Notes: generated from the letters alone by a model not told the origin. A stretch of 64,000 nucleotides of DNA from Protoeuglena noctilucae (GCA_958009085.1 OY253686.1:744001-808000); one strand, 5' to 3'. Shown: positions 1,407-55,694, numbered from the stretch's first letter. A program made the numbers and translations.

Positions 1407-3697
1407 TCAGACGGTCTTGTGCTGCATGCTGATGGGGCACTCGTGGATCTGGCGCCGCACCTCCCGCCAGTTACCGTTGGCAAGCTGGAAAAGGTACTCG
1501 AAATCAGACACCTGCGAGCGAGACGAGACGAGCACTACGTTATATCAGCACATGCACACTCGGGCACTCGTCCCTGGTCCACATCGGCATCCTCCATACA
1601 TATCGCACCTTGGGCATCAAGGAGCACGAGCCCGTCTGCAGCATGTAGTGCAGGACGCGGACGCCCTCGCGCCACGACATGCGGCGGATGGGGAACGTCA
1701 CGCCTGTCCAATTAGGGACCAGGACCTTGTTTGACACGGGGCCGTGGGCACGCGACGCGGCCAGGCACACTGCGGTGAGGTGACGAGGGCGGCTATTCAT
1801 GCGACAGCCACCGCGCCTCGCACCAGCGCAGTCATCACGGACCCGCACGTCAACACATCCGCCCTGAATCCAACGGCGCAGACGAAATCGCACCACCGCG
1901 CTCACCTCCGCGCTTGGGCGGCCTCCGCGTGAGCACCCTCAGGGCCACGGCCGCGCGCAGGCTCTCCGGCGGGATGGCCTTGCGCTCCTTGAAGGACACC
2001 CACTCCCCGTACCCCGTGTGCCCATACAGGGCGGCGTAGTTGTCGACGGCCAGCAGCACGCCCCGCTCCGTGCACCGCAGCAGCTCCTCCACGGCCCAGC
2101 AGAAAGCATCCACGGGAGAGACCTGCTTGCCCGCCACGCCAGCCTCCGCGATCGCGTGCTGCGGTGTGCGGAAGGCACCCGTCATCGGCCCTGGCCAAGC
2201 GATCGCTGCCGAGGGCCCACCGCTTGCCGCGACGACACCTAGGTGCCGCTATCGAGCACACCCATGCCATCTGATTGCCATATCTAGATAGCCCAGTCAC
2301 CAGGTTCGGGAAGTCCTTGCGGTCCAGGCCCTTGGTCTGGACGGCCTTGAGTCGGTCCCCGTTGGCATCCAGCAGCCACTGAAGCGCCTGCGACGCCACG
2401 ATGGGCGTGTCCCACATGCCCGAGCCGTGCTTTATGAAGCGGCCCCCGGACATGAAGGCCGCCGCATCAGGGATGTACCTGCGTGACACGTAAATGATGG
2501 GAGCATGAAGGCGGGCATGGTCGCTTGGCAGAACAGACGGTCTCCCACCACGCCCAACATGCATCGCTATCCCCCTTGCCATCTTACCACGTGACCCACT
2601 CCTGCTCCGCCGCCCACTGCACTGCCGACACGAGCGCCACGGACTTGCCGGCCCCAAATGGCCCTTCAACGAGGATATTGCCGCGGATCTGCTGCGTCCC
2701 ACCGCTCGTGCGCTCCTGCAGGGCGCGTGCCACCACTTGCTCCTCGTCCCGCACCGCCCCTGCCTCAAAGACGGGCCCGACCGCGACAGAGGCGTCCTTG
2801 CTCACCAACTTGCGCTGCTCCGCCTGCGTGCGCAAGACACGGCGCGGGTTCGTGCGGCGTGATCACGGATCTTGCATCGCCGCGACTAGCCCCCCAGCGC
2901 GAACCGCCCCTCGCCTCGACCATCTGCTTGATCAGGGTCAGCAGCAGCGCCGTGTCCTCCCGCAGCAGCACCCGCAGTTGGTGTTCGTTCAGGTCAAACT
3001 CCTCCTGGACTTCGCGAGGGAAGCCCGCGGGGAAGTTCTTCTTGTCGAGCGGGAACCATGTCAGCAGCTCCTGGGAGGAATCAATCGGGGAGTGACGGTG
3101 GCATTGTGGACGAGTGACCTTTCGTCTGAACGCTGCAAGCCCAGGCGCATCCGGGGACGCACCTTGGCGTGCGCGTGCGAGATCTGCGACCGGCTGTGCA
3201 GGTCGGGCGTGCCGCGGAAGTAGCCGAGGTGCAGGGGGTAGTGCTGCTCCGAAGGCGATGGGGTCCCCGGGTCGTCGCGGGCGAGCTGCTTGCGCGTCCA
3301 CCGCTCGTCGTCCACCCAGGCGTTCGGCGGAGCCTGCGCGTGCGGCACTCGCGGCGGTGGCGCGGCCCAGGCGAGGCGGCGCGGGGAGGAGGGCCGCGCT
3401 CCCGGGCGCCCATCTCACGTCAGCCACCTCCTCCGGCATCTCGTGGCCCGGGAAGTACTTGAACAGGCGCTCCACGACCTCATCGACGGACTTGACCGAA
3501 GCATCGGCCTTCCTCTTCCGCTTCTCGCGGTTAAAGTAGTTGGACATCGCCCGCCCCCGCGTTGCCGGCTCCCGGTCGCCGTCCCAGCTGCATCTGGCCA
3601 CCATGGGCTCCAACAAGCCACCCAGCCGCCCGCGACTCGTACCTGCGCCCGCCAGCGCCTGGGCGGCACCGATCGCGGCGCGGCGGCACCCCAGCAT
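1407..3697 (-). CDS. DAP3: Mitochondrial small ribosomal subunit protein mS29 (DAP3)
   Basis: P-loop GPFGAGKS followed by ALVSAVQWAAEQEWVTWYIPDA, WDTP, VLLAVDNYAALYG and C-terminal FQLANGNWREVRR. Arg/Ala-rich presequence. 8 exons; intron 2824-2914 has a GC donor. Confidence 0.85.
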
Positions 3698-4681
3698 GGT
3701 TTCCCCGGCAGACGCCCACGCGCAGCGGCTGTAGGGAGCGCAACGAGGCGCCGCGAGTGCGGCGGGCACGACTAAGTCGATCTGATCCGCTTCAGACCCT
3801 CGCAGGGGTGCTAAAGAAGATGGCGGATGCAGGGCCCAAGTCCGTGTAATCGCTGCTGTCCCTCCCCCGCCTGCTGCTCGGAGCTGGAGTGTTTTTGCAC
3901 CCGTGCTGGCAAAGCACACCAAGTGACCCTCGATGCATCCACCGCCGCCCTTCCTTGGGCCGCAGCAACGCCGCCAGCGGTGCGCCAGAAGGATTCAGCC
4001 CCCAGGAGATCGGCGATCCCGCTTGGCACAGCCCAGCACTCCACGTTCCCAACCCCACTCCACGCGGTCGTCGTCATTGTCCGTCCGCACTCGAGATGTC
4101 GAGCACGCTTGCGCGCGTGAGCGCCCAGGTCACGCACGGGTCGTGCGGGAAGGCCGCATGCATGGCAGGCGAGTCCTATGGAAACGGTTGGGCGACGTGG
4201 AGCAAAGGCAGGTGCAGCAGCGCCTTCTCGACGACGTGGGGAATCGATATTCCCGGCCCTTGCGCCGTCAGCGACCGTCGCGGCTCGTTCGACCAAGTTT
4301 CAGCAAGTTGATGGGTGCAATGTTGAGCTTAGCTCGGATCTCTCGGGCTGGATCCTCGAGAGAAGGTGGACGGACCTGGGGTTTGTGTGCTCGGGAAAAG
4401 ATGGCCGGCGCGGGGCATCATGGATGCGCAAGAGAGGGTTTCTTTGTTCGTTGTGTAGCAAACGTGTCAACGCGGCGGGCATCGCCCGCATCGCACGATG
4501 GGATCCGGCATCATGGGGCTGCTGAGCTGCGGGCGCGAGCGACTCTCCTCCCAGGCCGCCCTGGCTTTGGCGCTCAGGCCACTGCACAGCCCCTCGCATG
4601 TTGGGTATCCTCGATATCGCATAATCGCGTTCCCACTCGGCATCTGGCCGCCCTTGCCCCGCAGTGCCCGCTGTCATGCGG

Positions 4682-5818
<1,137 letters not shown>

Positions 5819-6037
5819 GGCATATGTTCTGGCGTGATGCTGCTGGGGCGCGGCCCTGCTCGCCACATAGGCGCTCCAGGAGAGTGTGGGCTTCCATTCG
5901 TCGCGCGTTGAATACATCCAGCCGGCAGACAGGCCTAGCAAGCGGGGCTTCTCCGCTCCCTGAGCCTCACTCATCCCCGGGCCGCGGGAGGACCCGCCAG
6001 CGCTCGCCCGCGGCATGCGTGGCACCTGCTCGCCAAC

Positions 6038-7798: not shown

Positions 7799-9570
7799 AT
7801 GCAGCCGCCGGCGGCGCCCTGCCAGGAGCCCGCGGAGGCGGTGGAGGACTACCCTGGCTTCGTGTTTGGTGCGGCGTGGCGCGCCTCGGGCCTCAGTGTG
7901 GCCTCCAGGCAGTACTGATGTCATTTTTGTTGATGCCATCCCTCGCGCGCGCGCTCCCCGCAGAGCGCGTGCGTGACAGCATCCTGGCCGAGGCCGGCCC
8001 GCGCGATGAGCCCCACTACGCGGACAAGCTGACTGTGCTCCTCACGACATCCCCGGTGGTCTCCAATCCCGACACAACGATGATTGAGGTCGTGCTCTCG
8101 ACCGTGGCGCAAATCCCGGGGCTGCTCAAGTGCCGCTTCGTCGTGGTCTGCGACGGCTGCTGCGTGCTGCCTGCCGAGCTCTTCAAGACGAAAGCCCGCA
8201 AGTCGTCCTACCGGGGAGGGCGAGTGCCTGGCGAGGAGGGGCTGGCCATGTACGAGGAGTACAAGGCCCGCGTGCGGGTGAGTCGCCGCTGCACCCGGTC
8301 CCTTGGCCGCATTGTCACACAATGCACCTGCCCAGGCTGCGCCGCCCATCCGAGACCTTCTGCGTGCCACCAGGAGCTGATGGCGCGGCCAGGCGCGTTC
8401 CCCGGCGGCGCGGAGGTCCTGGAGCTGCCCTCCCGCCACGGCTTCGGGATGGCCGTGCAGGAGGGCCTCCAGCACGTCCACACTCCCTACGTCATGGTGA
8501 TCCAACACGACCGTGCCTTTTGCAGGCGAGTGGCCACCGCTCTTGGCAGTCGTTGGGCAGGGTCCAATCCGCAAGTGCCACCCTGGCCACCCTGGTCGCA
8601 AGCGCGCAGGCCTTTCGACGTCGCGGGGCTGCTGGAGTGCATGGAGGCCGACCCGTCGCTCAAGATGGTGGCGCTGCTGAACAAGAGCATGTACGACCAC
8701 GCGCGCCGAGTCCTGTCGTGCGGACGCATCAAGCTGCCCAAGTGTGGACCCGGGTGGCGGCTCCGCGTGGTCGTGGCTTTGGGCCGGTGCCCCGCTGACC
8801 CTCCTCTTGCATTTCTGGCGAGCGCAGGGAGGAGTGCGTCGAGGCAGCCAGGACCAAGTGCCCCCGCGAGGGCATTTGCCTCCGCCCGCTCCTCGCCTGG
8901 CTCGACAGCACGCACATATGCCCCGTGGAGCACTACCGCACGTTCGTATTCGGCGGGGGATCGGGGCAGCGCGCCAGGGTGGGTCCCCTGCTGCGTCTCC
9001 ACGTGCTGCTTGCTTTGTGACTGACGAGCAGAGACGTACGTGGGGCATTTGGCAAGAAAGGTGCACAGGGGCAGATCTGCCTGGTCCTCCTCGACCGCAG
9101 CTCAAGCTGGGTGGCTTCATCGAGGACAAGCTGGGCCAGGTGCAGCTGCAGGAGCTCCGGTGAGCGACGACATGGGGCCGTCAACCTCAGGCGCACACGG
9201 CCGCAGCCCTTGGGCGGCCGGGTCCACGGCTGCGCTCGCTTGGCCTTCTGGTCGCAGGCAGGAGGGTTTTGCCTCGCACGCGCGGCACGGCACGTGGATC
9301 GTCGACGATGGGGTGGAGGTGCGCATCACGGGTCATTTGGACGGGGGCCACTTCCGCGCGTGGCGCAAGGGGTGGGTCAAGAGCGTCCCGGGCGCGGCCG
9401 AGGCTCTCATGCAAGTGGGGCGGGGTCAGGCGGCGGAGGTGCGGGAGGGCAGCAGGTCGGAGAGCGACGGGTCGGCGGGGGATGACGTGGACCAGTCGGT
9501 GGCCGCCACGGTCCCCGTCGATGCGGACGTGTCATGTGACGAGTGGGTGGCGTATGAGCTGTTTACGTGA
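7799..9570 (+). CDS. Uncharacterised protein, putative GT-A (nucleotide-diphospho-sugar transferase-like) fold
   Basis: LTVLLTTSP...RFVVVCDG...HGFGMAVQEGLQHVHTPYVMVIQHD follows the GT2-like strand/helix order. 7 exons inferred; intron 8526-8609 has a GC donor. Confidence 0.55.
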
Positions 9571-10313: not shown

Positions 10314-12181
10314 TCAGCAGACGGCGCGGCACGGGGGGAGGCGCGAGCGGCGGTTCTTGCAGCCGACCCCGCCCCTGGGGAGGAGCGCGGCCGCCATCGT
10401 GGCTGAGGCCTTGGGGCTCAGCCCAGGTGCGGGCGAGGCGGGGGCCTGCATGCCAGGAGGGAGTAGTTCCGAGCATGAGCGTCGCCGTGACACATCTCGG
10501 AGGACACATCCCCTCACGCAAAGTTGCGGGCTCGCACCTCGGGGTGGGACTCGGTGGAGGAGCTGGTGCGCATGGCCGCGCCGAGCGACACGCGGGCGGC
10601 CTCGCAGTCGTCGGGGTGCAGGAGGGGCTCGTCGAGGGCGGGGCCGGGCGCGGGCAGGTGCTCGTCCTTGCCGTCGTCGGGGGCGCAGCACGACGAGCAG
10701 GGCCGCGGGAACTCGTTGCTGACCGAGACGGTGGGCGATCCCGGCAGGAGCTGGACCGTGGCGTCGGAGGCTAGGCTGGTGGTGATGGCGGGGATCGCGG
10801 CGGCCGCCGCGGCCGCACGGCTACGGCGGGCGGCATTCACTCGCTTGGCGCGATGCCTGCGAAGGCCAGCAAGGTCGCGATGAGGCCCACAGCGCGCCCG
10901 ATGGCCCTCCCAGCGGCCCAACCGCTCCGTCCGCGACAGCAGCGGCGCAATTGAAGCAGGAGGACCGCTGCGTCGCGGTAACGGCCCGGCCCAAGTGCTT
11001 GGTCAAAGCCAGGCGGAATGCGCGACTGCCACGCGACGCGGACTCGCCTGAGCATCGTGACCGACTCGTGCCATGTGCACGAGGCGATGATGCCGAGGAA
11101 GGGCGCGTAGTCGACGGCGGGGAAGTTGAGCTTGCCCGACAGGCCCAGCCGGTTGATGGTGGCGATGTCGAACGTGCGCGCTGCGTCGTCCTCGAGGTCG
11201 TGGTCACCCAGCGAGGTGGTCTTGCCGCCCACGGATATCTGCGGGCGGGGACGCGGCGGGCGTTAGACCCGCGGCGCTCGCCGGGCCGAGGAGGCGCCCC
11301 CCGCGACGACCCGGTCGCGCATCGCGGCTCGACAAAAAAGCGAGAATGCCCCGGGACCGCGCCGGGGGCCGCAGGAAAAAGACCTCCCACGGGCACGCCC
11401 GGCGCGCCGACCGTGGCTGCGGGGCCACAAACGGGGCGCGAGGCCCCGCCAATCAAGCGAATTAAGGCACGGAAGCGCGCTGCAAGGGGCCCGCGCGGCG
11501 GGGAGGCGCGGGAGCAGGGATCGATCTGGGAGGGGGATATTTCGCCCTGGCGGCAAAGTTGGTCACGAGGGCGACGCGCGACCCCCGTACCGACGAAACC
11601 GAGCCATCGGAAGCGGTCAAATCGCCCGGCCGCGGCCCCCCGCCCCCGCCACGGCGAGCTGGGTGCGTTGCCCAAGCGAGCAGGTATCCGGCGCCCTGGC
11701 CGGGTATCCGCCGCGGCGACGACACCCCAGGCGTGTGCGATGAGAAACACGCGCCGCCCGGCGGCAGGGGCGCGCGGGGACGCCGGGGGCCTCCGCTCGG
11801 AGAGCCAGACGCCCGCCGGGTGGCAACATTTGCGATCGGGGGAGGCCAGGGAGGGCGAAAAACGAAGCCATCGGCTGCGGGCGACCCGGATGACCGCGCG
11901 CGCGGGCGCGCATCGCGCTCGGGTCCGTCGTTGGGGCCTCGGCCCTGTCCCGCAATCCCCCCGCGCCGGGGACACCCGGCGGGCGCGCGTGCGTCTCGGC
12001 GACGCACAAACCGACGTCGTCGCGGCAAGGCGCGGCGCGCAGGAGGCAAGGACCCGCGCAGGCGACGGGCCGCTGGGGCAACGGCCTGCATGCGCCCCGC
12101 CCGGCGCTCGCTCACCTGCGCGCGCCACTTCCCCGTGGGCCGGAAGAGGGTGACGCCTCGAAAGGCGCTTGACTTGCCCAT
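10314..12181 (-). CDS. AP2-domain transcription factor
   Basis: Spliced MGKSSAFRGVTLFRPTGKWRAQ|ISVGGKTTSLGDHDLEDDAARTFDIATINRLGLSGKLNFP is an AP2 domain. Intron 11239-12115 splits the domain; GC donor at 11047; low-complexity C-terminus whose 3' exons are less certain. Confidence 0.85.
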
Positions 12182-12547: not shown

Positions 12548-14163
12548 TCAGCGAGGATTCATGCCGTCCTGGGCGGACCGAAGCTCGAGGGGGTCGTCCC
12601 CCGCCCCCTCCCCCACCGGCAGGCTGTCCTCCGCCTCCTGCAGCATGTCGACGCCCAGGATCTGCTCCAGGGCGAAGTCCGACTTCTCCTCGACGCCCGG
12701 GAGCATGGACGGACTGATGAGCTCGTCCAGCGGGTTGGTCTCGGGCTCGCTCGCCAGCGCCTTGCTCATGCTCTCGTCCAGCTCCCCCATGATGGCGTTC
12801 TCCGGGTCCGCCTGCGCCGCGCGGGTGAACTGGCGCTTGTCGCACCCGGGCCGCGCCGGAGAACCACCGGGCGCATGCCGAAGAACCCCACCCCAGGCGC
12901 AGGGCCTCACCTTGGTGCTCCACGACTTCATCGTCGCCAGGACCCCCTCGTTCCACTCGGGGAACTCGCGCTGGAAGCGGTACAGGGACCGCACGTACGT
13001 GGGGAGCTGATGCACGCGGTTCAGGTACAGGTCCTCCGCCTTGACCGCCTCCATGTGAGCCGCGTGGCGCCGGCTGACGGCGTAGCGGTTGTGCGCCCGG
13101 TGCATCTGGTCGTGGTGGATCCACATCGCGCCTTCCTCCGCACGCTTGAGCTCGACTTTGCGCTGCGTGTCGAAGCACAGCTGCGAGGGCGGCGGCGGGC
13201 GCATGAGCGGCCCCAGCCTGCCCACCCGCAACAGTCCGCCCTCGCACGGGCCTCGCCTTGTACGACCGAAGCTCTCGCAAGGCCTTCTCCTTCTCGTCGG
13301 AAGACAACTCCGCCTCGTCAATCGCGTGCCGCTGGCTGACGTCTGCATGGGCCGAGCGCGGGGTCGCTGTCACTTCCAACGCCGCAGCGTCAGCGCGAGT
13401 CCGCAGCGCGCTCTGCCCGGCATCCCCAGCGCACCGTAATCGTCGAATATGAAGTCATCCGCGCCCCAGACACCCCACAGCCCCGGGATGTCCACGTCGA
13501 TGCCGTCGCCCTCGAGCGCCTCGGCCGTGAAGGCCTCCTCGAGCCCACCCGGCTGCACCTCGTAGATGTCGTCTGCGACAGACAGGGGGCTCCGGCATCC
13601 CGAGACGCCGACGCGGGAGCGTGTATGCACCATCAGAACATGCCAGCCGAACTGTCACCTCCGGGGTCCGGCATGAGCTCGTTGATCTCGGACAGCGTTG
13701 CCTGCGAGACGATGCCTCGGTTGTCACCACCCAGGTCCCCTCCCATCCCAGCGCCTACGTCGTCCCCGGCTATGTCCCAGTCCTCCGCGTCCAGCAGGCC
13801 GTCCGCCAAGGGCTCCGTAAACTCGTCCCCCACGTCCCGCGCCACGGCGGAAACGACCCGCCTCGGGCCCCGCTTCCTGCCTGTGGGATTGTCGACACAC
13901 GCAGAACGTTTATACTGAATGGAAACGCCCCGGTGCGCCGCGACGGCCCCGGCGTCCCGTCGCGTGTTCCCGCCGCACGCGCCGTGCGGACGGCGGCTAA
14001 CAAGGCGCACGGCGCACCTGTCCTTGACGCACTCGCATAGGAGACTGCGGAGGCGACGGCTCTGCCCCCAGCGCGGCGGGCCGGGGCTGCCGTAACAGGA
14101 CGGCTGCATGACGCCCCTCCCTGTGCGCGGCCCACGCACTGCGGCGCCGCCGCCCGGGTGCAT
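12548..14163 (-). CDS. Hypothetical protein with acidic region and helical domain, possible organelle transit peptide
   Basis: Phase-compatible exons with strong GC3 bias (LCFDTQRKVELKRAEEGAMWIHHDQMHRAHNRY...FPEWNEGVL). No family recognised; start codon uncertain. Confidence 0.55.
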
Positions 14164-20845: not shown

Positions 20846-21669
20846 ATGCAAACGTTGCCTGGGACCGTGGCCTGCCCACGACAGCTGATGCCAAGCTTTC
20901 GTAGACGCCGTCGCCGAGCATGCATGGGCTTGGCGAGGGCGGCTGGCGAGCCATGGCAAATGATGGGCCGCGTGATGAGGCCGGACATGCTCCCGGACGA
21001 GAGCATTCGGGCGCCGCTCGTCACAGAGTTTGCCCGCCGCCAGCTGAGGGACGAGCTGGCTTGGACGGACGAGGATTTCCAGGCGGCCCTGGCACAGTTG
21101 CAGGCATGACGCCGAGGGCAGACACCAAGGCTCGACACCGAGCCGGCCAGGCACACCACAAACAGCACACGTCTTGTGCGCAGGTGCTGCTTCCTGACTT
21201 GGGTACGCGGCTGGCCGTGATGAAGGTCGACGTCCTCGTCGATCTGCTGAGGGACAGGGACCTGGTGGCGGCCCGGGTGGTGGCCTGGCGCGAGCTCCTC
21301 CCCAAGGTGCCTCGAGGCTGGCAGACAGCGACTTGCCCGGGCCATCTGCCCGTCGCTGACCCGTGTATCGCCCCGTCGCATCCGCAGGCCAACGTGTCGG
21401 CGATGATCTCTGCAGTCCCGACGCTCGTGCTGGGCGAGTTCGACGCCGCCATCAAGAACGCCCAGCGTCTCAAGACTGACTTTGGCGACGGCGTTGACGA
21501 GGTTATTGATCAGCAGTGGCTCATCCTGATCGAAGACCTCGACGTCCTGGCCGGGGAGGTGCAACGGTTGCTCGGCTTGGCCACGCGAGAGGCAGCGGTG
21601 GCCGAGATCCTGGCGCGACCTGGCATCGTTTCTAGCATCGTCTCCAATCGGGGCCTTTCTATTTGGTGA
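20846..21669 (+). CDS. Hypothetical plastid-targeted helical protein
   Basis: Arg-rich transit-like N-terminus; ...AQLQ|VLLPDLGTRL...RELLPK|ANVSAMI... Intron 21104-21183 has a GC donor and the second intron is GT-AG. Confidence 0.65.
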
Positions 21670-34172: not shown

Positions 34173-34208
34173 GTCGGCACGGGTGGTTAGGCGCTAGACA
34201 CGGCAAGC

Positions 34209-37200
34209 CTAGTTGCGGGGCTCCACATCCCTGAACACGGAGCTCCGGCGCAGGTCCGACATGTCTTGTCTTCGCAAGGCATCGCTGTCGTCCCCTTGGC
34301 CCTGCGACGCGTCTAATGGCAAGTCCACGTCGCACATCTCCTGCGGGGATGGATAGTACTAACAAATGACTAAGCAGAAGCAGGTACCGAGAAGTGCACT
34401 GCCACCAGGCTGGCAGGAGGCTGCCGTAGATATGGTCAGGCGTCGATGCGACATGTCCGCAGAGATCACATTCAACCACTACCACGCCCCATCCCTTGCC
34501 TTGAGGAGGTCGACCGGCACCGGCGACTTGGCCCCGTCCCCCAGCGCTGCCAAGTCCACGTCCTTCACTGCCGCCACCTCCTGCCGCAGCGCCTGCGTCG
34601 CAAGAATTCAGGCGCACGTGTCACAGCGCCCATCGACACAACAGCGAGCTGGGCAGCCCGTGCAAGACACAGCACCTGCCTCGCCAGCGCTGGGCTACAC
34701 ACACAGCGACTGCACACAGCACGTGTCCCGCACTAGTGCTGCTGAGCGGCTCACCGAGGTCACCGGGCTGGCCGGCCCCGCCTGCACCGACTCCGCGCGC
34801 CGCCTCCGCGTCTCCGCGGCCGTCAGCGCACCCCCGGCCGGCATCCCCTGCTGCGGCGCCGACCCCGCGCCGAGCGAAGCGGGCGCCGCAGCGCCGCTGC
34901 CCGTCCCCGGCGTCTGCACCGTCGATGACCCCGCTGGGATCGCCCCCGCGTGCCCCCGCCCCCCTCGCGAGCTCCCCGTGATCTGGATGATCCTCCCCGT
35001 CGCGTCCTGCCCCTGCCCCACCTGCCCCAGCAACACGTCGTCGTCCAGCCCCACTGGGATGCGCTCAATGCCCAGGTCGGACGCAGGGCCGTCGCGGTGG
35101 GCGGCCGACAGCCGGTCGGGGCTCACCATGGTCACCTCGATCGAGGACCGCAGCAGGCGGCCACCGTTCCTGGGGGGGGAAAGGCGAATGGACGATGTCA
35201 GCGATGCTAACCCTGAAGGGACGCGACATAAGGGGAGGCTACAGTGGCAAGGCAGCCGGTGCATGGGGTTGCCAGGTGAGTTTCGTGCTCCAGCACGTCG
35301 TCGCACGTCATCGCATGTCGCGGGCATCATCACTCGCCTGTTGATGATCTGTATGAAGGTGAGCATGAAGTTCTCCTTCTGGGCCATGGTGGCGTCCTGG
35401 TTGGGGGCGTCGATGTAGAAGGACACGATGATTTCGAGGGAGTTGGTGGTGATGTCGTTGAGGTACACGCGGCGGTGCAGCTTCTGGATGATGCGGGGGT
35501 CCCGACGCGTGATCTGCGGGCATGCACGGGGTGGCCAGGAAGTGGCCAGGGGGACAGGCTAGAGAGCCAGGCGCATGGCCCTGTGTCGTGGTAACACCAT
35601 ACAACCACAAGATAGGGTAGTGATACCATGCAACCATGACACAGGTGCCTCTGTGGTCTGCGCAGTGCGGACGTCCCCTCACTGCGCGCATCTCGGCAAT
35701 GATGGGCTGCACGACCTCCACGCTGTCCATGGCGATCTGCAGCTTCTGGAAGTAGCGGAACTCGCGGCCCTTGCGCGTCACGTTCAGCACCACCACCTGC
35801 GGCAGACACACCGACCGGGTGGGTTTAAGGTCCCATGGTCGCAAAGGAGCGCGACGCAGCGACAACACACAGCCGTGCGGCCATGCGCGTGTCAGGGGCC
35901 AACAGCTGCGATGGCACGTGACGCAGCGACACCAGACAACGTAAGACAAGCCATAGTTGGTTGCGGCAGTCCGTGGGGCTGGTTTCACAAGTCCCCATCG
36001 CCCCCTCGCTCCCTCTCCATCTCTTGCCTTGGAGAAGACCGAGTTGGGCACCACCCAGACCTCCCTCTCGAAGGACCGGATCTGCGTGCGGAACCAGCCC
36101 ACGTCCACCACGATGCCCTCCACGGTGGTCGTCGGGGCGGGCTTGAACCACACCTCGTCCCCGGTCTCAAAGGGGGTCGAGGACAGGATGACCAGGCCGT
36201 TAAAGAGGTTCTCCAGAATCTGCGGGGGGTAGGCGAGGGTGTTGCAGTGTGCGGATGGGGTTGACATCAGGTTGACAAGCAGAGACGTGTCGTGGCGACG
36301 GTGCGAGGGTGCGCATGCAGGCACCCTGTGTACGTCCATGGCATGGGTATGGGACATGAAACGCCCTTGCAACGCACGCACCTCCCGACCCGCCAGGGAT
36401 AGGGCGATACCACCGATACCACCGATGGCAAGGAGGGAGTTGACGTCGAAGCCGATGGCCTGGAGCGACAGCGTGATGCCGACCGTGATGGTGACGATGG
36501 TCACGAGCTTGTCGATGGCCTCCACGCGACGCTGCTGCGTTTTCTCCCTGTAGGGAAGGGCACGAGGGGGATGTTGCACAGAGGCGAGCCTCACAGCGTG
36601 TGCTGAGCACGCCAGCGCCAGGGCCCCAGCGCTGCGTGAGTCGAAGCTCCCCCGCCCCTCACCCCGACAGCTCGTACTGCCAGGACGTCTCCCTTAGGGC
36701 GCGGTCCTTCAGCTTAAAGACGACGGCCATGGCAGAGAGGATGACGCAGAGGGTCATGATGGTGCGCATGATGTGGTTGACGTACGTCCGGGGCACGCGG
36801 ATTAGCGTCGGCAGCAGGTTCTCCGCGAGCGCCACGGCAGCGCCCACGAAGAGCAGCGTCTCGACGGGGCGGTAAACCTCCCTGCAGGGGGCACGGCAAG
36901 CGCGGTCGGCCCCGCGCGACCCGGAGCCGAGCGCGCGCGCGATCTGATGCAATCTCGCTCGGAGTTGTGCACTTTTACATACCGCCTGCGGCCGCGGCCC
37001 TCGCCTCAGGATGAGAAACGTGGACGACTTCTCCCAGGCGGCCATGGTCCCCTCTCCCACGAAGAAGTCGCGAATTTTCTTGGCCGCGGGCTCCAGACCG
37101 ACGCGCATCAGCGTGATGACGACGACGATGCTCCAAATTTGACGGAAAACGGCCGAGACGAGGAGCTTGGACGTGGTCTGGGGGGCGGGCGCGACGTGAC

Positions 37201-37706
37201 GCTCCGTGGGCGCGGCGGGATCGCGAGCGATAAACAACGGCGGTCGCTTCTGCATCTGAGCGACTCGTGCCATATTTTCGACTCACCTTCGACAGCGCGA
37301 CGTTCATCGGCGTTCCGAACGCGACGACGTAGTACGCAGCTTGCACCAGGACGAACACGACCATGGCCAGGAAGACGAACGCCCCGATGAAGATGCCCGA
37401 GCCCGCCGGGACGATCGTCGGCCTCTTAGGTCCCGGTTGCGGGTCCGGGTTCGGCGCGTCCGCGGCCGGCGACGTCCCGGGAGCCCCGTCGTCCAAACCG
37501 GGTGGGGCCGTGTCGCCTGCTGCCATGGCGTGCCGTCGCAGCCCCTCCCTCGGCGAGCCCACGATCTCCTTTGCTATGCCGAGAATGCCAGCGGTGCATC
37601 TCCGCGGGATGGGGGCGCGCGGGGCCGCGGGCCTTCGCTGCCATCCCGTCCGCAACAGGGCCCGGGCCAGGTGCGCAGGCGCGGCCGCGACGTGCGCCCG
37701 GCACAT
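34209..37706 (-). CDS. MscS-like mechanosensitive channel (organellar MSL)
   Basis: LLAIGGIGGIALSLAGRE|ILENLFNG, EGIVVDVGWFRTQIRSFEREVWVVPNSVFS and transmembrane helices; transit-like N-terminus; 10 exons, the last inferred through a GC donor at 34499. Confidence 0.9.
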
Positions 37707-41200: not shown

Positions 41201-44200
41201 CGTCCAATGTCTGGGCCAGCGGGGGGCACCTGGGCACTCTGCGCCAGTCCACTCGCTCCCCCGGCCAGCCCGATGCCCTTGCGCCGTCCAGCCCGGGTGC
41301 GGCGGACCGTGCGCTGGTGGCCGCGTTGCGGAGGGAGGCGGAGGCCCTGGGTCGGCTGCGCGGCAGCGAGGAGGGGGTGCGGCGTCTGCAGGAGCTGGTG
41401 GCGGCCAAGGACCGGGAGCTGCAGCAGTGCCGCATGGTGATCAAGGTGAGACTCGAAGATGCGATGTGATCAGGGCTGGGCATGTGTGTGTGCTAGCTGG
41501 GGTAACGTCAGGCATGTGCTCTGTAGCTGGCCTGGGTCTACTGTGGTCGGCGTGCTCTACAGCTGGCCTGGGATGTCGCACTGCCTGCTCGTCAACACAG
41601 CTGTGGTTTCAATTCCCCGCAGCTGAGGGAAGAGCGCATCCAGCGCATGGACATGAAGATGCACAGCGGCTATGCGAGGCGGTCGCCCACGGGTGAGCCT
41701 CAGCTGGAGCGGGGCTGGGAGCGCCGGGGCATGGGCTCCCTCATGCATGAGCCATGCCTAGCACGGCTCGCCGATGACAGATCACAGATGACAGATACTG
41801 CTGGCCTGCCCATGCACACACACTCTCCCTCTCGTTACGCCACAATGACTGTGGACATCCACGGCCCCTCATTTCACACCTCACGTCGAGGCCACCTGCC
41901 CCCGCCCACCTGCCCCCGCAGCGTCCCCCGTCAAGTCCGGCGGTGCCCCTGACCTGGCGTCCCGGGAGGTGCAGGCTCTCCATGCAGAGATCGAGCGGCT
42001 GAAGGACGACGTGCTGCGGCACCCGGAGCTGCTGCGACTGCATGCGGAGAACCAGCAGCTGAGCCAGGTGCGAGGGTGCACACCACAGGTGGCGTAGCAC
42101 TGAGGCAACGCAGGTGGCGTAGCACTTGCAGTAGTGAGAGTGTGGCAGGGGCACTCACCAGTGACTGACTCTGTCACACTGCATCGCAGGACCTGTCGAG
42201 CCTCGAGGGTTTCGTGAAGGAGGGGGAGCGCGAGCAGCTGCTGGCGGACATCGACGAGCTGAGGGGTCGGCTGGAGGCGGTGGTGGCGGACCGGGACCGC
42301 CTTCACCGCCAGGCGGGGGGCAAGGCCGAGGTGGAGGGCGAGGCGGAGGGGAGGGCCCTGGCGCAGCGATGCGAGGCGCTGGAGTTGGAAGTGCAGGCCC
42401 TCAGGTGTGTTGCTTCATGATTGCATCATTAGGCGAGTGACACGCTCGCACATCTTGCTTGGAACCCACATCCCACTTCGGCTAGGAGCCAAGCTGGGTA
42501 ATGGACATGTCATGTGCAACCGTGTGTGTGGTCGGTGTTGGTCACTCTTGTGCCTTGTGTGATCTCAGGCACGAGCTGGAGGAGCGCAGTTACCAGCTGG
42601 CGGACGCGTCGTCTCAGCGGATGAAGGCCGAGGCACTGACGGCGGCAGCTGAGCGCAGGGAGCAGGAGCTGGGGGAGGAGCTGGAGGGGAAGGAGGTGGC
42701 CATGATGGAGACGCAGGTGGGTGTGATGCGAGGGGAGCATCGAGGACACGCTGTGCTGGTGTCACCTCCACTTGGGGTGTCACCTCCAATGACCGCCTGG
42801 ACAGGAAGCAGCGAGCAGGCCAAGGGGCTCCTTGCACCCCTTGTGGTGCTCTGCGTGTCTCTGATATATGATATATGATATAAACCACAAACGTCCTCTC
42901 ATCTCGTCTCTCGTCCCCAGTCGCTTCTGGCGGAGACCCAGGAGCAGCTGCGGCAGGCGAGGGAGCAGATCGGGGCGGGGACGGACCGCGGGGCGAGGCT
43001 GGCGGGGGAGCTGGAGAAGGCCAAGGCGGCGCTGGAGGAGGCGAGGAGGGAGGTGGACGCGAGCCGGCAAGCAGCTGAGGCGAGTGCAGCGATATGGCGA
43101 CGCGGCTGTGGATGCGCAGTCGGGTGGGCTCAGTCTCTGTCTCTGGCTGGGACAGCTCGAGTGTGCTTAAGCAGCGTGTCATGATCGGTGCATCATAAGT
43201 CAAGTGTGCAATTCTAGATGCTCGCTGTCGCACTGCAGGAGGCGGCAGAGACCGCAGCGGAGGCGGAGGCAGAGGCGGCATCCCTGAAGCGGCGCATTGT
43301 GGTGCTGGAGGAGGAAGCGCAGGTGAGGCGCTGTAGATGTATATGTGTGTCGATTGATGCGGGCGAGGGGTGGCAGTTGCGAGATTGACACGCGACCCTG
43401 GGGGTGACGCTAGCGTCGGTACATGTTGCACCTGCCTTGGCCGTCATCGAGCCCACCATGGTTGATCCAACGTGTATCCATTCGTGCCTTCAGGCGACGG
43501 AGGCTGACTGGGACGACCTGCGCCAGCGCCTGGAGATGCGGGAGAGGGAGCTGGTGGAGGCGGCAGCGGCGGTGCAAGAGGCGCTGGAGAGGGCGCAGGA
43601 CGGGGCGGCGGGGCAGGCGGCGTGGGAGCTGCGGGTGGCGTCGCTGGAGCAGCAGGCGGAGGAGGAGAGGCAGCGGGCGGACGGGCACGAGCGGGCAGCA
43701 CGAGTGAGTGCACGGGTGGATAGGTGGCACGGGAGCATGGGTGCAGGAGGGACACAACAACATCTGCACTGACCTGGTCTGCCACGGATGCTTGACTCGT
43801 CCATCACTCGATGCGTCACCTGCAAGCATCTCTCGTAAACTCGCAGGAAGCGGCGGACCGTGCCGCATCCGAGCGTGCGGCCCTCGAGGCGCGGCTGCGG
43901 GAGGTGGAGGCGCGGTGCGAGTCCCTGACCGCTGAGCTACGATCCAAGAGGGAGAGTTTGGCAAATGCCACGGAGCATTGCCGGAGGGCGCGGGAGGAGG
44001 CGACGCGTGCCACGGAGGCAGCGAATGCAGAGCGGAGGGCGGGGGAGGAAGCCAGGGCAGCGACGGCTGAGGTGGAGACTCGGCGCACCCAGCTGGCAGA
44101 CGCGCTGGCGGTGGCGGAGGCGCGCGTCGCCGAGGCTGCCAGGAGCGCAGAGGCGGCCCGGCAGGAGGCGGCGCAGCTGCGGGATCGCCATTCGATGGCC

Positions 44201-45984
44201 ATGGACGCGGCTCGTGCGGACTTCGAGGCCCGGCTCGAGAGCCTGCGTGCCAGCAAAGACGAGGAATCCTCCTCCGGTGAGGTTACATGGATGTATGTAT
44301 TGCTGCCCAGGTGCTTGTGCCACTATCGACTGGCATGGTGTCATGGTCAAGCAGAGCGGTGCTGGTCCGTGTGCATGGATGGGTGCATACCAGAGAGCCT
44401 GGGTCGTGAGGATCACGTGCCTATCTCCCCCCGCAGTGTCTCGCACCTTTGAGCACCAGGTGCGTTCCCTGAAGGAGCGCATCGCCGCGATGGTGGCCGA
44501 GAGGCAGGAGGCGACGACACGGGCACAGGGGGAGGTAAGGGAGCACGAGCATGGGGTTTTCTATGGACTTCATTCTCAGTCCTGTCGTATCATCTACTGA
44601 TCGATTTTACACTCGTGAATGCCTGCCTGAGCCCCTGCGTTGCAGAAGGACCTCCTGGCCCAGCGATGCGCGGACCTGGAGGCGCGTGTGGCGGAGTTGG
44701 GGCGCGAGGGACAGGCGCTGCGGGAGGCAGTCGAGGCGGCCCGTCGGGAGAGGGACGCCGAGGTGGCGGAGGCGACGAGGGCGCTGGAGCAAAGGGCCAG
44801 GGATGCCGAGGCGAGTCGTGGGGTGGGAGGGGACGTGGGGTCGCATGCAGGACAAACCCCAAGAAATGACAAGTCTAGTGTGCTGTAATGAGATCAACAC
44901 TGTGGCTGACTGCCATACTGGCCTGCACTTGCCAACTCGCACGACGTCTCCTGTACCTTGCAGTCCGCAGCGGCGGCTGCCATGCGTGACGCGAAGGAGG
45001 CCCGGGAAGCGCAGCGGCCCTGCGAGGGGTGCAAGCGGTGAGACTGAGCGACGCCGGTGTTGATTGTTGCAATAACAACTGCATCGTCCCCTTAGCCATG
45101 TCTCGGTAATGGTCCCAGTGGTGAGCTATTTTGCACCCTGACCGGTGGTCAGGGCATCACCCTGGCTTGATCCCCCCCCCCTCTCCCCAGCGTGGCTGAG
45201 ATGGAGCGTCGCGTGCACGATGCGGAGGAGGAGAAGCGCGTGGAGGTGGAGGCCATGCGCTTCAGCCTTGCCCAGGAGTCGCGGCGGCTGCACGAGGCCA
45301 TCGTCAAGGGGCGCGAGTACAAGAACAAACTCATCGACCTGCACCAGGCGAGGAAGTGGTCGATGATGCGATACTGATACGTAGTTAACACGCGTGCACA
45401 CGCTCTCATCGACCTACACCAAGCTGGGAGCACATGGCGGGCTGTGTATCCGTATCTCACCCCCGCTCTGCCCCTCTCGTCCCCGCAGCGCTTCTGTGCG
45501 GGTACTGTCCCCGCCTCGCCCATGAGCCAGGCACCCAAGACGCCCCCGGCCGCCGAGTTCTCTTTCCGCAGCAGGTGCGGTGCAAACGGTTTTGCCACGA
45601 TGCGATGCCCATCCACCAACCCTCCGCTACCCCACCACGTGCCACCCGGCGCGTGCTGTGTGGCTGCTGCCATGTCCTGAGATGCATGGCATCAAACTAT
45701 GACCATGACCCCTTCCCCCTCTGCAGTTTTGGGGACGAGGTTCGCAAGTCCTCTGAGAAGCGCGACGCCCTGCTGAGCAAGGTGGCTGAGCTGGAGAGGT
45801 GAGGGCGCCGGGCGTGGCTAAGGCATGTGGGGTTGTTGCATGCATATGCCTAGGTCATTCACCCCATGCTCACTAACGCATCTTGCCCCCTCCGTCGTGT
45901 CTCAGGAAGCTCCATGAGCTGGCAGCGGCGGCAGAGAAGGACTCCCCAGGCACGCTGCGGCACCGGGTCGTCAACGCAATGTGA
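38223..45984 (+). CDS. Kinesin-12 (KIF15/POK-like) with long coiled-coil tail
   Basis: NIKVMIRVRP, GQTGSGKT, NAESSRSH, LVDLAGSERQ and HVPYRDSKLSFLLQDSLGGNSRT motifs; about 24 exons. The first exons (38223-38953) rest on splice-phase inference only. Confidence 0.9.
42086..42126. repeat. 16-nt direct repeat in a kinesin intron
   Basis: CAGGTGGCGTAGCACT at 42086-42101 and at 42111-42126. Confidence 0.85.
45330..45424. repeat. Degenerate duplication of an exon/intron junction
   Basis: CTCATCGACCTGCACCAGGC (45330-45349) versus CTCATCGACCTACACCAAGC (45405-45424), 18 of 20 identical. Confidence 0.75.
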
Positions 45985-46178
45985 CGCAGCTGTGCGTGAC
46001 TGGCTCCCGATGTGACGGCATGTTTCGCGATGCTTCGCTCCGTTCGGTTGTGGCAGATGGCAGACCACAGTGACATGGCTGCTTCAAGCTGGCCATGAGT
46101 ACCACGGATCGCACAACAGCGTCGCGTGCATGAGTCAATGCGACAGTGCAAGGCTGCGACCTATGCAAAGCCCCCATG

Positions 46179-47613
46179 TCACAAAATGGCCGCCAGCCCT
46201 TCCTTGATGCGCGTCGGGCACACCACGAACCACGGGTTGAGCAGGTCCGGCTTGTTGTACTCTAAGGGTTCCCCACGCCGCACTGCCTCCCGCCACGTGG
46301 CCTCGTCCCCCGCCTGGATCACGTGAGCACCAGCCTCCCTGGGGCACACGATGAGATTAGCAGGTGCGACATGGGTGCCTGTCCATGGTTCAGTCTTCCC
46401 ATTTCTCTGCCCAGTCAGCAGCTAAGCGTTCGCACAGTCACACCGTAACCACGAGCGCACCACTCCCATGCCCAACCAGCATGCCTAGGTGCCAAGCGCT
46501 CGCCTGACGACGGCGTCGGCAGCAGCCGTGTCCCACTCGCACGTCGGGCTGAGCCTGGGGTAGCAGTCAGCCAGTCCTGCTGCTACCATGGTCAGCTTGA
46601 GGCTGGAACCGAACTGCGCAATGCGAGCAGGACGTCATGTTGCAGGTTTAGCTCAAGGCATGTTACACGCACAGGGTGACAGGGTGACCCCCATGGTCGC
46701 CTCGCCTGCTCCGAGACTGGGTTGCGGAATGCCTCGTCCATGAGGACCTTGGTCAGCCCATCCGGATGCGACGCGGAGGACACCACGCGCAGCCCCTCTT
46801 GATCGATGGGGGGGTCGCTGGCTCGAACGGGACGCACGCCCTGGCTGTCTTTCATGAAGGCCCCGTGGCCCCGCTCGGCCCAGAAGGAGGTAGAGGTGGC
46901 GGGGACGTGCACGACGCCCAGCACCGGGGCGTACCGCCCGTCTTCCCCTCGCGTCACCAACGCGATGTTGACAGTGAACTCCCCCGTTCGCTTGACGAAG
47001 TCCTTCGTGCCGTCCAGCGGATCCACGACGAAGAGAGAGGGCCACTGTCGCCTGGTGTCGTAACTGGGGGGCGTCCCGTTTTCCTCGCTCAGCACGGGCA
47101 CGAGAGGGGCGAGCCTCCGAAGTCCCTCCATGATCACGGCGTTGCAGGCAAGGTCAGCGGCTGCGGGACGGGAGCGGGGGCTCGCACACGAGGACGTGTC
47201 GCAGGGCACGGCAACTTTCCGCGAGGAACCCGCTCACCCGTCAGAGGCGAGTCGTCGTCCTTGAAGCTCAGGTTCCAGTCTTCCCGTGGCCCGTCGTATA
47301 TCTCCATAATTCTTCGCCCGCCCTCCTCTGCCAGCTGCACTAGGGCTGCAACCTCCACCCTGCGACGAAAGGCGCACTTTCGCAACAGTGCGGGGGACCC
47401 GTATGAAACTTACGTCACCACTGCACCTGCAGAGGAGCGCACTGCGCGTCATCGTCACCTGGCTGGGCCATCTTGGGTAGGAACTTCAAGCATCGCCCCT
47501 CGACCTCCCCGCCCAGCGAGCCGCCCCTGCAAGCCAGCAGTCGAGTTCGCGGATGATTCATGGAAGACGGAAGTGCGTTTTGACGCGGCAGGAGGCGACC
47601 GGCAGCTGAACAT
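46179..47613 (-). CDS. cysQ: 3'(2'),5'-bisphosphate nucleotidase, CysQ type
   Basis: KDDDSPLT|AADL, VLSEE, VDPLDGTKDF, GEFTVNIAL, GSSLKL, YPRLSPTCEWDTAAADAVVREAG, YNKPDLLNPWF; two GC-AG introns; start uncertain. Confidence 0.9.
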
Positions 47614-47868
47614 CCGATGGGACGCTGGCGACGTTTCGCCAGTTGCAATTGTTTCTCGCGCTCGCCTCGCTCGCTTGACTTGCTTGTCACGCAGGGACCG
47701 TCGGACAGTTCTACATGCGTGAAGCCGATAACCCCAGCCCACGAGTGTAGCGAGAAGTGCTCAACCAGTGGCGCAAACCTAAGCGTGGTTGTTCGTCGGC
47801 GACAGGGCCCCTACCCCGCTCTTCCCGACCGTCTTTGCCTCTTCGTGCTCGTTTGGGCTGCGTCTGCC

Positions 47869-51453: not shown

Positions 51454-51458
51454 GGGGG

Positions 51459-53471: not shown

Positions 53472-55694
53472 ATGACCAAGGACGAGATCACGCTGTCGGA
53501 GATTCGGAGGCGGGAGCGCTTGCAGGCCATTCTGGAGAAGGAGCGCGCCAAGGATGCGATCCAGGCGAGGACTGCTCCAAGCCACGCAAGCCCTGGCAGC
53601 GGGCCCTGTGCCGAGACGACCCGGTCCACCCTTCCGCGCCTCTGAACCGCCGCAGAACAAGGTCAAGTTTGCGCGTGACCCGGCCAAGTTCCGGCACACG
53701 CTCCTGACGGCGTCGCTGAACGGGGGCCTGGAGCCCAAGAGCCAGAAGGAGAAGCAGGCCATGCGCACGTCCCTGGTGGGGCCGCGGAGGGAGAGGAACG
53801 CGCGGGCGGCGGCCTCCGCTGCCGCAGCTGCGGCTGCAGCCGCTCCGACCCGCGGCCGGCGCGGGGAGAGCCAGCGCGCGATGGCGGCCGCGGCAGATGA
53901 GGCCGAGGAGCACCCGGAGCCTTCCTACGCGGCCAAGCTGGCGCTGGCGGCGCGGGACAATCGGGCGTCGTCGGCGTGGGCCGTGATGACGCGGTACGCG
54001 GACGACCTGGCCGCGCAGGAGGACGTGATGCGCCGTGAGATGCGCCGCCGCAACCAGGAGACGCAGCGGCAGACGCTGAACCGGCAGCTGGAGGAGCTGC
54101 GGCTGCGCGAGGAAAAGGAGAAGGAGGAGCTGCGCCGCGAAGCCGAGGTGGGGAGCAATCCGGAATAGGCGGCATGGGTCTGGTGCGTCGTTGCTTTCGT
54201 CTAACCCTGCCCTCATGCCTGCCCTCGCTCGCAGCTGGTGGCCCGCCAAGCCGAGGCGTTCCGTGCTGCGGAAGAGGCGAAGAAGGCGGCGGCGGTGGCG
54301 GCGGGGCGTCGCCTGAAGGAGGAGAGGGACCAGATGATGGAGTCGGTGCAGCGGGCGAAGGAGGCCGAGGCGGCACGCAAGAGGCAGCAGGAGGAGGCTG
54401 AGATCCGGCAGGCGATGCAAGGCGAGGGGTGGTGCGCGAAGGGACGCCGGCCATCGACGCAGCCATGGGCCTGTGTGTGGCGATGGGTTAGAGCCGCACC
54501 CGGTCCGGGTTTTGTGAATGCTACAACCTGTCTTTGCCCACGCAGCGGTGGAGGACGACCGGCAGCGCCGCCACGAGCAGATGCTGGCGCGGCGTGCCGA
54601 GATGGACCTCCTGCGCCAGGCGAACGATGACAACACACGCAGGAAGAAGGAGCTGGAGGCGCAGGCCAAGGCCGACGACGAGGCCAAGATGCGCGAGTAC
54701 CTCAAGGTGACGGCGCAGGGCGCCGGGAGTGTCGGGGAGGCTCTAGCGTGTTGTCCCAGGGCGGGGAGGCGCTCAGGGAGAGCGCAGGGGCGCGTGGGCA
54801 GGTGCCAGCCACGTTACAGAAGCGTGGGTTCAACACCTGTGGCCCACCTGCGGTGTTCCCCTGCGCCACGCAGCTGCTGGAGGAGCAGGAGCGCGAGCGG
54901 GAGGCCAAGCTGCAGGCCTTCTATGACGCCATGGCCCGCCGCGCCAACGCCGCGGGCGCCATGGCGGTGCGCGAGAACCAGGAGCGTGCGGAGCGGGAGG
55001 AGGAGGTGCTGCGGCAGCAGTGGCGGGAGGCGGAGGAGCGTGCGCGGCGGAAGGAGGAGGACGACCGGCGCCGGCAGGCGGCGGTGAATGAGGAGCTGGC
55101 GCGGGTGCGGGCCGAGCAGATCGCCCTCAAGCAGCGGCTGGCCGAGAGGCAGCAGCAGGAGATGAGGAACTTCATGGACACGGTGCGGCAGCACGACGAG
55201 AGCGCCGTGCAGGCCGAGATCGACCAGCAGAGGTGAGGGCTAGGGAAGGGGGCTGTGCGGTTGCAACTCTCGGCCCAGGCTCTCCATGCATGGAGTCGCA
55301 ATGCATCGCTGCCCATCTTGCTGCGACCTGGTTGCGGCCCAATGCGTCCCAATGCCAACACCACGCAGGGCGCGCCGGATGCGTAACTTCAAGTACCGGC
55401 AGATGCTGGAGAGCCAGATCCGGGAGCGTGAGGAGAGGCAGGTGTTGGAGCCGGCAGTGATGACGGTGCAGGTATGGGCACGGAGGCCGGTGCTGGTTGA
55501 TGGGGAATGCACCACACGGTGGGGTCACTCCACGACCCTGCCATTCTTGCCCGCGCTCGCAGGAGGCCAAGCTGAACGAGCCCATCCTGGTGAGCGCCAC
55601 GCGGCACCTGGGCCCCGAGCACCTCAAGCCCGACACCGTCACGGGGCGCCCCGACGTGCGCTACATGACCATCGGGCGATTCGCGCCCACCTAG
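53472..55694 (+). CDS. Glu/Arg-rich coiled-coil protein (trichohyalin/TPH-like, possibly flagellar)
   Basis: Continuous charged helical sequence over 7 exons; GC donors at 53565 and 54422; family assignment is inference. Confidence 0.65.

Follow-up and report, generated by a model that had tools for sequence, protein, structure and literature searches.

Frequent GC-AG introns in a GC-rich 64-kb window of likely green-algal origin

The window analysed here, a stretch of 64,000 nucleotides (nt) from Protoeuglena noctilucae (GCA_958009085.1 OY253686.1:744001-808000), contains multi-intron genes for, among others, a phosphoglycerate mutase, an MscS-like mechanosensitive channel, an inositol-monophosphatase-family protein, a large WD40/beta-propeller protein and kinesin-12, in which introns beginning with GC instead of the canonical GT recur. 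An initial annotation, made from the sequence alone, had listed 25 such GC-AG introns, each by its first intron base. At 25/25 of these coordinates the first two intron bases are GC on the strand claimed, and AG directly precedes the donor at 23/25; the donor pentamer is GCGAG at 21 sites, GCAAG at 2 (34499 and 36027), GCATG at 1 (21104) and GCGAC at 1 (38244). The window is GC-rich throughout (66.9% overall, 62-71% in 4-kb bins), with a GC content at third codon positions (GC3) of 0.85-0.90 and introns of 62% GC, so that words resembling GC donors also arise by chance. The observation of frequent GC-AG introns is confirmed, with proof from RNA for part of the window.

Four marine metatranscriptome runs of one study (X1-X4) supplied this RNA evidence; their assembled contigs were aligned to 29500-49499, the 20 kb with the most claimed sites. 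Between 31 and 46% of the sampled 31-mers of 30000-39900 are present in these runs, the pattern expected of spliced mRNA, and no base mismatches of RNA contigs to the window sequence are listed over 29500-49499. All sampled 31-mers of 30000-39900 are contained in four DNA runs, which may be the source of the assembly. The contigs yielded 31 reported splice joints, and the results rest on the best-supported 15 of these, each of which was shifted through its alignment ambiguity to find canonical placements. All 15, which lie between 32.0 and 36.7 kb, can be placed canonically in one way only: 7 as GT-AG and 8 as GC-AG introns. The 8 GC-AG junctions, each seen in 3 RNA runs, coincide exactly with the claimed donors at 32289, 32550, 32778, 33217 and 33796 on the plus strand and at 34499, 35337 and 36027 on the minus strand, and no GT-AG placement exists within the alignment ambiguity at any of them. 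Thus, 8/25 claimed sites are fixed by two-sided RNA junctions, and all 8 lie in two genes, which are listed here with their GC-AG introns (a slash marks the exon-intron border):

31987..34172, plus strand: apgM-type 2,3-bisphosphoglycerate-independent phosphoglycerate mutase gene; 8 introns, 5 GC-AG and 3 GT-AG
32289..32374, plus strand: apgM intron 2, GC-AG, cag/GCGAGA; spliced contigs of X1, X3 and X4, unique placement
32550..32628, plus strand: apgM intron 3, GC-AG, tgg/GCGAGT; RNA junction
32778..32889, plus strand: apgM intron 4, GC-AG, cgg/GCGAGT; RNA junction
33217..33338, plus strand: apgM intron 5, GC-AG, gag/GCGAGG; RNA junction
33796..33912, plus strand: apgM intron 7, GC-AG, aag/GCGAGC; RNA junction
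34209..37706, minus strand: MscS-like (MSL2/3-type) mechanosensitive channel gene; 9 modelled introns (4 GC-AG), 7 introns verified by RNA
34341..34499, minus strand: MscS-like GC-AG intron, aag/GCAAGG; RNA junction
35170..35337, minus strand: MscS-like GC-AG intron, cag/GCGAGT; RNA junction
35797..36027, minus strand: MscS-like GC-AG intron, aag/GCAAGA; RNA junction
36882..37004, minus strand: MscS-like predicted GC-AG intron, gag/GCGAGG; gene model only

In these two best-covered expressed genes, GC-AG introns account for 5/8 (apgM) and 4/9 (MscS-like) of the total. Joined, the RNA-defined exons of 31987-34172 form an open frame of 441 codons that encodes a cofactor-independent phosphoglycerate mutase of the archaeal type; its 441-amino-acid (aa) product contains P0001, a 436-aa protein from an independent public collection, letter for letter, and Pfam families PF10143 and PF01676 match across the exons. 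The spliced frame restores the motif GYPPQQ/YYRG across the 32289 junction and, in the MscS-like gene, VPNSVFSK/VVVLN is restored at the 36027 junction, both as the initial annotation had proposed. The MscS-like gene carries PF21088, PF00924, PF24956 and PF25237 on separate exons, with plant-type MSL2/3 domains.

The mutase gene on the plus strand and the MscS-like gene on the minus strand are convergent, and contigs that share 34055-34339 bear splices of both; therefore, either their 3' ends overlap by ~280 nt or the assembler fused the two transcripts. Run X2 covers 27/30 bins of 29500-49499 at low depth and includes unspliced contigs across introns (e.g., 35422-35896) as well as stretches without cover in the other runs; it therefore carries pre-mRNA or contaminating DNA of the window organism.

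Four further claimed sites have partial support from RNA or homology:

46339..46503, minus strand: GC-AG intron of the inositol-monophosphatase-family gene, cag/GCGAGC; 16-nt RNA loose end and motif
46614..46705, minus strand: GC-AG intron of the same gene, cag/GCGAGG; contigs of X1, X3 and X4 start at 46706
29705..29844, minus strand: GC-AG intron of the large WD40/beta-propeller gene, aag/GCGAGG; X1 contig edge (1 nt ambiguity) and gene model
8526..8609, plus strand: GC-AG intron of 84 nt, in-frame and stop-free, cag/GCGAGT, in a gene of unknown family at 7799-9570; homologues

The loose end of 16 nt, found in one X4 contig, matches 46507-46522 in the next exon and thereby defines the GC-AG intron 46339-46503, across which the conserved stretch WDTAAADAVV(R)EAG is restored, matching the motif ADAVV(R)EAG that had been noted earlier. 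Likewise, SEQ/FGSSLK is restored at the 46705 junction, and PF00459 matches on both exons flanking the intron 46614..46705. The starts of contig pieces at 29844 and 46706 agree with the claimed donors 29844 and 46705, and the bounds of other pieces, at 30869, 37287 and 48259, agree with modelled GT donors; a 30-nt loose end present in three runs defines a GT-AG intron at 49482-49647. Over all RNA-resolved junctions, GC donors make up 9/17, concentrated in few genes. The site at 8526 is supported by homologues: the closest of these, P0210, aligns gap-free over ...VMVIQHDRAFCR/PFDVAGLL... only once 8526-8609 is removed, and for 11/12 homologues the spliced form scores 18-38 units above the read-through form. 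More generally, removal at the GC..AG borders is accurate and gives open, conserved reading frames in apgM, in the inositol-monophosphatase-family gene and in the gene containing 8526.

A representative search with exon 7966-8523 of the latter gene returned P0209 at a 100% match. This protein of 368 aa is the unspliced stop-to-stop open reading frame (ORF) 7918-9021, which runs across both the GC-AG intron 8526-8609 and the next intron; being an unspliced read-through, it was dropped as evidence on splicing at 8526, and the more distant homologues were used instead.

The share of GC-AG introns in the window as a whole was estimated with a signal-and-codon gene finder that was seeded with the two genes defined by RNA, along with the 15 RNA introns, and then retrained on its own predictions. 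It converges on 31-32 GC donors among 121-123 introns (~26%), and does so equally from starting GC-donor priors of 0.05, 0.5 and 0.9; a curated set holds 30 GC and 90 GT introns (n=120). The proportion of about 25 in about 140 given by the initial annotation was, thus, of the right order and slightly low. The gene model recovers 12/15 RNA introns exactly and 20/25 claimed donors. It misses the RNA-proven 32550, the donor of which it places at 32571, as well as 50730 and 38244; 46503 and 46705 are missed because the inositol-monophosphatase-family gene was dropped in strand-conflict resolution, and some genes, including this one and that for a DUF3593 protein, were merged or dropped. Six extra GC donors of the model (4169, 11281, 25289, 25834, 40932 and 47247) are doubtful, with odd lengths or chimeric joins.

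At the 23 claimed sites with a modelled intron, the GC junction (score 4.7-13.9) beats every in-frame GT alternative within 90 nt (score no higher than 8.1), on a scoring matrix trained on a set that included those sites. The heptamer AGGCGAG occurs 40 times in the window, against 16.47 +/- 4.47 in dinucleotide shuffles, of which 0/100 reached 40, a 2.4-fold enrichment, and 19/40 of its occurrences are claimed donors; the canonical counterpart AGGTGAG occurs 25 times, against 8.71 +/- 3.17 in the shuffles (n=100). Eleven claimed sites are supported by the gene model only, namely the MscS-like 37004 and the following ten:

2824..2914, minus strand: predicted GC-AG intron of a P-loop NTPase-like gene, gag/GCGAGG; gene model only
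10857..11047, minus strand: predicted GC-AG intron, cag/GCGAGT; gene model only
13181..13256, minus strand: predicted GC-AG intron, aag/GCGAGG; gene model only
21104..21183, plus strand: predicted GC-AG intron of a leucine-rich repeat (LRR) gene, with the off-consensus donor cag/GCATGA; gene model only, lowest score of the set (4.7)
23637..23737, plus strand: predicted GC-AG intron of the LRR gene, cag/GCGAGG; gene model only
43080..43238, plus strand: predicted GC-AG intron in the kinesin-12 tail, gag/GCGAGT; gene model only
44811..44963, plus strand: predicted GC-AG intron in the kinesin-12 tail, gag/GCGAGT; gene model only
45348..45488, plus strand: predicted GC-AG intron in the kinesin-12 tail, cag/GCGAGG; gene model
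53565..53655, plus strand: predicted GC-AG intron of a coiled-coil gene, cag/GCGAGG; gene model only
54422..54545, plus strand: predicted GC-AG intron of the same coiled-coil gene, aag/GCGAGG; gene model only

The donor at 23637 scores 11.9, and an in-frame GT alternative 36 nt downstream scores 6.7. The kinesin tail is weakly conserved, and its relatives P0089, P0091 and P0124 were uninformative at 43080 and 44811 in tblastn comparisons; the match of P0089 stops at 45344, just 5' of the 45348 donor, which lends this site weak support. For exon 53656-54147, between the introns starting at 53565 and 54422, no homologues were found at E <= 0.001. The candidate 50730 appeared in the first-pass gene model only, as the donor of a 15-nt first exon. 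None of RNA, gene model and homologues backs the candidate 38244, and tblastn with the three kinesin relatives gave no match upstream of 39169, the region in which it lies.

The GC-AG introns of the window look like ordinary U2-type introns. The acceptors are alike in both classes, with C at -3 in 99-100%, G at -4 in ~80% and C at -5 in ~80%, the interior base composition is equal, and the median length is 132 nt for GC and 114.5 nt for GT introns of the curated set. None of the 30 GC and 90 GT donor hexamers resembles the U12-type donor box, ATATCC or GTATCC. The acceptor is unusually strict in both classes, (C)GCAG/G across the 120 modelled introns, and GT donors have G at +3 in 86/90 cases. 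What sets the two classes apart is the remainder of the donor. The consensus AG/GCGAG put forward in the initial annotation proved near-invariant: GC donors are almost uniformly AG/GC(G/A)AG, whereas GT donors are looser and include GTGCG, GTGAC, GTGGG and GTGTG as well. Among sites backed by RNA, Pfam continuity or homologues, A at +4 with G at +5 is found in 12/12 GC donors vs 8/19 GT donors (p = 0.0014), and the full AG/GYRAG in 10/12 vs 3/19 (p = 0.0005); in the curated 120 introns, A at +4 with G at +5 is found in 26/30 GC vs 46/90 GT donors (p = 0.0005). Two-sided RNA junctions alone, a small sample free of nomination bias, give 8/8 vs 4/7 (p ~0.08 by hand estimate).

The ratio C/(C+T) reaches 0.84 at four-fold sites and 0.59 inside introns; at donor position +2 of the model set it is ~0.25, and there the share of T is 0.75, vs 0.41 in intron composition. 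Therefore, T is still preferred at this position despite strong GC pressure.

The mutase gene allows a comparison with other organisms. Introns were placed by spliced alignment on other eukaryotic contigs with apgM relatives, comprising 9 loci of 47-77% GC, and 28/28 well-defined introns at these loci have GT donors. Another 8 junctions for which a GC donor scored best show no donor consensus and span unaligned query; they were excluded from the 28 and probably reflect missed exons. The window GC-AG intron at alignment position 125.33 (donor 32550) is shared exactly with locus L005, where the donor is GT. Near-coincidences are also found, all with GT in the relatives: position 67.0 in the window vs 66.67 (1-nt offset), 175.0 vs 174.0 (3-nt offset) and 125.33 vs 126.33 in several relatives (3-nt offset). 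These offset positions, in gap-free alignment, involve window introns 32289, 32550 and 32778 and loci L005, L059, L062, L063, L064, L069 and L071. The offsets of 1 and 3 nt suggest intron sliding or re-chosen splice sites, and GT in the relatives at shared or nearby positions would fit a conversion of pre-existing GT donors. The closest mutase relative fetched, L005 (2028 nt, 77% GC), matches in two segments, at 86% and 62% identity; it is even richer in GC than the window, but contains just one intron, with a GT donor, over the span that holds four introns in the window gene.

How did so many donors come to carry C at +2? The probable answer is a GC-biased change from T to C at this position, tolerated by a normal spliceosome wherever the rest of the site is strong. 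Under this scenario, the donors would have started out as GT sites and undergone T-to-C substitution at +2, driven by GC-biased mutation or gene conversion like that presumably acting at four-fold sites, where C makes up 84% of C+T. Fixation would be restricted to donors in which the remaining positions pair strongly enough with both U1 and U6 for splicing to stay efficient, and the trait would be a side effect of extreme GC pressure in the presence of a normal spliceosome, like its counterpart in other GC-rich algae. The initial annotation had offered two explanations, GC-biased drift of donor sites and a spliceosome with relaxed recognition of +2; the strict consensus of the GC donors and the preference for T at +2 favour the former. 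With regard to the latter, it is unlikely that the spliceosome of this lineage has itself changed, be it in the U1 5' end, a base modification, U1C, Luc7, Prp8 or U6, such that it takes C at +2 almost as readily as U, with the high GC-AG share as the consequence and GC bias merely supplying the mutations. The consensus of the GC donors is much stricter than that of the GT donors, as a normal, mismatch-sensitive U1 and U6 would require; T is over-represented at +2; and Iwata and Gotoh 2011 report an unchanged U1 5' end for the two GC-AG-rich algae that are best known, Aureococcus and Micromonas pusilla (PMC3033335).

Several observations, nonetheless, weigh against GC bias as a full account, and some of them favour a changed spliceosome. 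The same gene that has 5/8 GC donors here has GT at 6/6 introns of L059 (71% GC) and 1/1 of L005 (77% GC), 7/7 in all, which shows that high GC alone is insufficient; some lineage-specific factor, such as relaxed selective constraint or a spliceosome of greater tolerance, may be needed. The local GC-AG shares of the two expressed genes are likewise what a tolerant spliceosome might produce. In the same study, two Micromonas of similar GC content (65.9% and 64.1%) differ greatly in GC-AG introns (22.2% vs 2.7%), and the origin of this abundance is termed an enigma, with proteins of the U1 small nuclear ribonucleoprotein (snRNP) or base modification suggested as the cause (PMC3033335). Furthermore, only one intron position is shared exactly with a relative, so that descent from an ancestral GT is not proven. 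The statistics on compensation are biased, given that it was for their consensus that many GC sites had been picked in the first place, whether in the initial annotation or through the signal matrix. The case is also weakened by RNA evidence that comes from a single study and from assembled contigs, with 15 of 31 joints used. The contrast between the all-GT gene at 71-77% GC and its counterpart here, with GC donors at 5/8 introns, hints that an intron-rich marine green alga may have evolved a 5' splice-site recognition tolerant of C at +2, GC pressure alone not being enough, although we consider this rather doubtful; in that case, the introns lying 1 or 3 nt off the positions in relatives could have had their donors re-chosen at nearby GCGAG words. 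If true, this would represent an independent green-lineage origin of the trait known from Aureococcus, M. pusilla and Emiliania.

Two other possibilities carry little weight. It is very improbable that the GC-AG introns are recent introner or transposon insertions that brought along their own GC donor. The two classic GC-AG-rich algae also carry introners. Introner-derived introns of the dinoflagellates Symbiodinium and Polarella are mostly GC-AG, a high share like that seen here, but these form repeat families (PMC11282704), whereas the introns of the window share no sequence and, therefore, are not introner copies. Specifically, an all-against-all blastn comparison of the 120 introns gave no similarity between distinct introns bar one 25-nt match, the other hit being the overlap of two opposite-strand predictions; the window holds one short tandem repeat; introns of both classes have the same composition and similar length; and one GC-AG intron lies at a position exactly shared with a relative. 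Finally, the GC donors could be an artefact of junctions misplaced near GT donors, of chance GCGAG words or of T-to-C errors in the assembly. GCGAG is common in DNA of 67% GC, with 16.5 copies of AGGCGAG expected by chance, 11/25 sites are model-only and 2 (50730 and 38244) are unverified. Yet the RNA-testable claimed sites are exact in 8/8 cases with no GT placement possible, the RNA contigs do not differ from the window, the sampled 31-mers all recur in the DNA runs (possibly the source of the assembly), the 2.4-fold enrichment of AGGCGAG was matched in none of the shuffles, and the GC junctions of the 23 modelled sites outscore their in-frame GT alternatives. An artefact is, thus, extremely improbable, and it is refuted for the sites tested by RNA. 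An Rfam search of the 64 kb gave no matches, and the window contains no small nuclear RNA gene.

The best named protein hits belong to the green lineage, at 60-64% identity (Closterium, Apatococcus and a pedinophyte), which fits the earlier guess of a chlorophyte; together with the MSL2/3-type domains and DUF3593, these hits point to a marine green alga as the source of the window, one that lacks close annotated relatives. Emiliania, an early candidate for the source, was rejected, as it did not appear among the hits. That the abundance of GC-AG introns would be a novelty, as the initial annotation implied, is not supported: reports from 2011 and 2014 had already described such abundance in GC-rich algae. 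The trait is, thus, already known from such algae, and the window is a further, intron-dense, green-lineage example. The genes of the window, with 8-9 introns in 441 and ~700 codons, are far more intron-rich than those of M. pusilla. By comparison with animals and plants, where ordinary GC 5' splice sites make up ~1% of introns, the GC donors described here are ~20-50 times more frequent, and their GCGAG consensus, which mirrors the GTGAG and GTGCG donors of the organism, differs from the mammalian GCAAG. What the two kinds of site have in common is the major spliceosome and a compensating, stronger consensus; in Kralovicova et al. 2011, the stronger remaining consensus of GC 5' splice sites is described as offsetting the +2 mismatch with U1 (PMC3167603).

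The closest precedents are algal. Iwata and Gotoh 2011 give GC-AG shares of 39.6% for Aureococcus anophagefferens, 22.2% for M. pusilla CCMP1545 and 7.7% for Chlorella sp., vs 1.3% overall (PMC3033335). The window resembles these algae in its GC content (66.9% vs 65.9-69.5%), in a GC-AG share tens of times the usual 1% and in the canonical 3' AG, and two of the three species are green algae, like its likely source. It differs in that the organism is without a close annotated relative (best named hits at 60-64%), that introner-like repeats were not found in the window and that the share given here is an estimate from 64 kb. For Emiliania huxleyi, Feldmesser et al. 2014 report GC donors at 56-65% (PMC4028052). 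There, as here (9/17 RNA-resolved junctions), GC donors rival or exceed GT in expressed genes, and the AG acceptor, the GC-rich genome and the mis-modelling of genes by GT-only predictors are shared as well; by contrast, E. huxleyi is a haptophyte, and the window-wide model estimate is lower, at ~26%. Pelagophytes have GC donors at ~14-17%, according to a 2024 preprint (bioRxiv 10.1101/2024.10.30.620910). For marine green or prasinophyte algae, literature searches, supplements not covered, gave no report of abundant GC-AG introns beyond M. pusilla and Chlorella, and the available text of two prasinophyte genome papers (PMC13213038 and PMC12718437), supplements aside, has no occurrence of 'splice' or 'non-canonical'. 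Both the phenomenon and its tie to GC content date in print from 2011, so that a specialist would not be surprised.

In practice, the trait matters for gene annotation. The warning of the initial annotation that standard predictors would mis-annotate these genes is sound: GT-only predictors mis-modelled E. huxleyi genes, as that report relates (PMC4028052), and the read-through ORF P0209 illustrates the spurious proteins that arise when introns are ignored. In the window, GT-only annotation would break ~1/4 of the introns and, hence, a large share of the multi-intron genes. More broadly, GC-rich algae with many GC-AG introns are natural material for studying to what extent a core splicing signal can be shifted by mutation bias before adaptation of the spliceosome becomes necessary.

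Other genes of the window were identified by single-exon Pfam matches to a short-chain dehydrogenase, a PAP2 phosphatase, an NmrA-like protein, a GATA factor, an LRR protein, synaptobrevin, the large WD40 protein, kinesin-12, inositol-monophosphatase-family and alternative-oxidase-family proteins, DUF3593 and a TPMT-like methyltransferase. The positions of the Pfam profiles run on from exon to exon; in kinesin, for instance, successive exons match 50-81, 83-128, 130-173 and 176-327. A search with the kinesin motor exon found relatives and no identical protein. In the coiled-coil tail of kinesin-12, contigs of X2 and X4 contain a backward joint from 43903 to 43257 with 9 extra letters, accompanied by loose ends at 43013-43029, 43277 and 43883, which could reflect mis-assembly driven by a repeat, an allelic variant or back-splicing. 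The only tandem repeat detected, with a 12-nt unit in 4.8 copies (77% matches), occupies 62232-62288 within a long minus-strand ORF at the window's right end.

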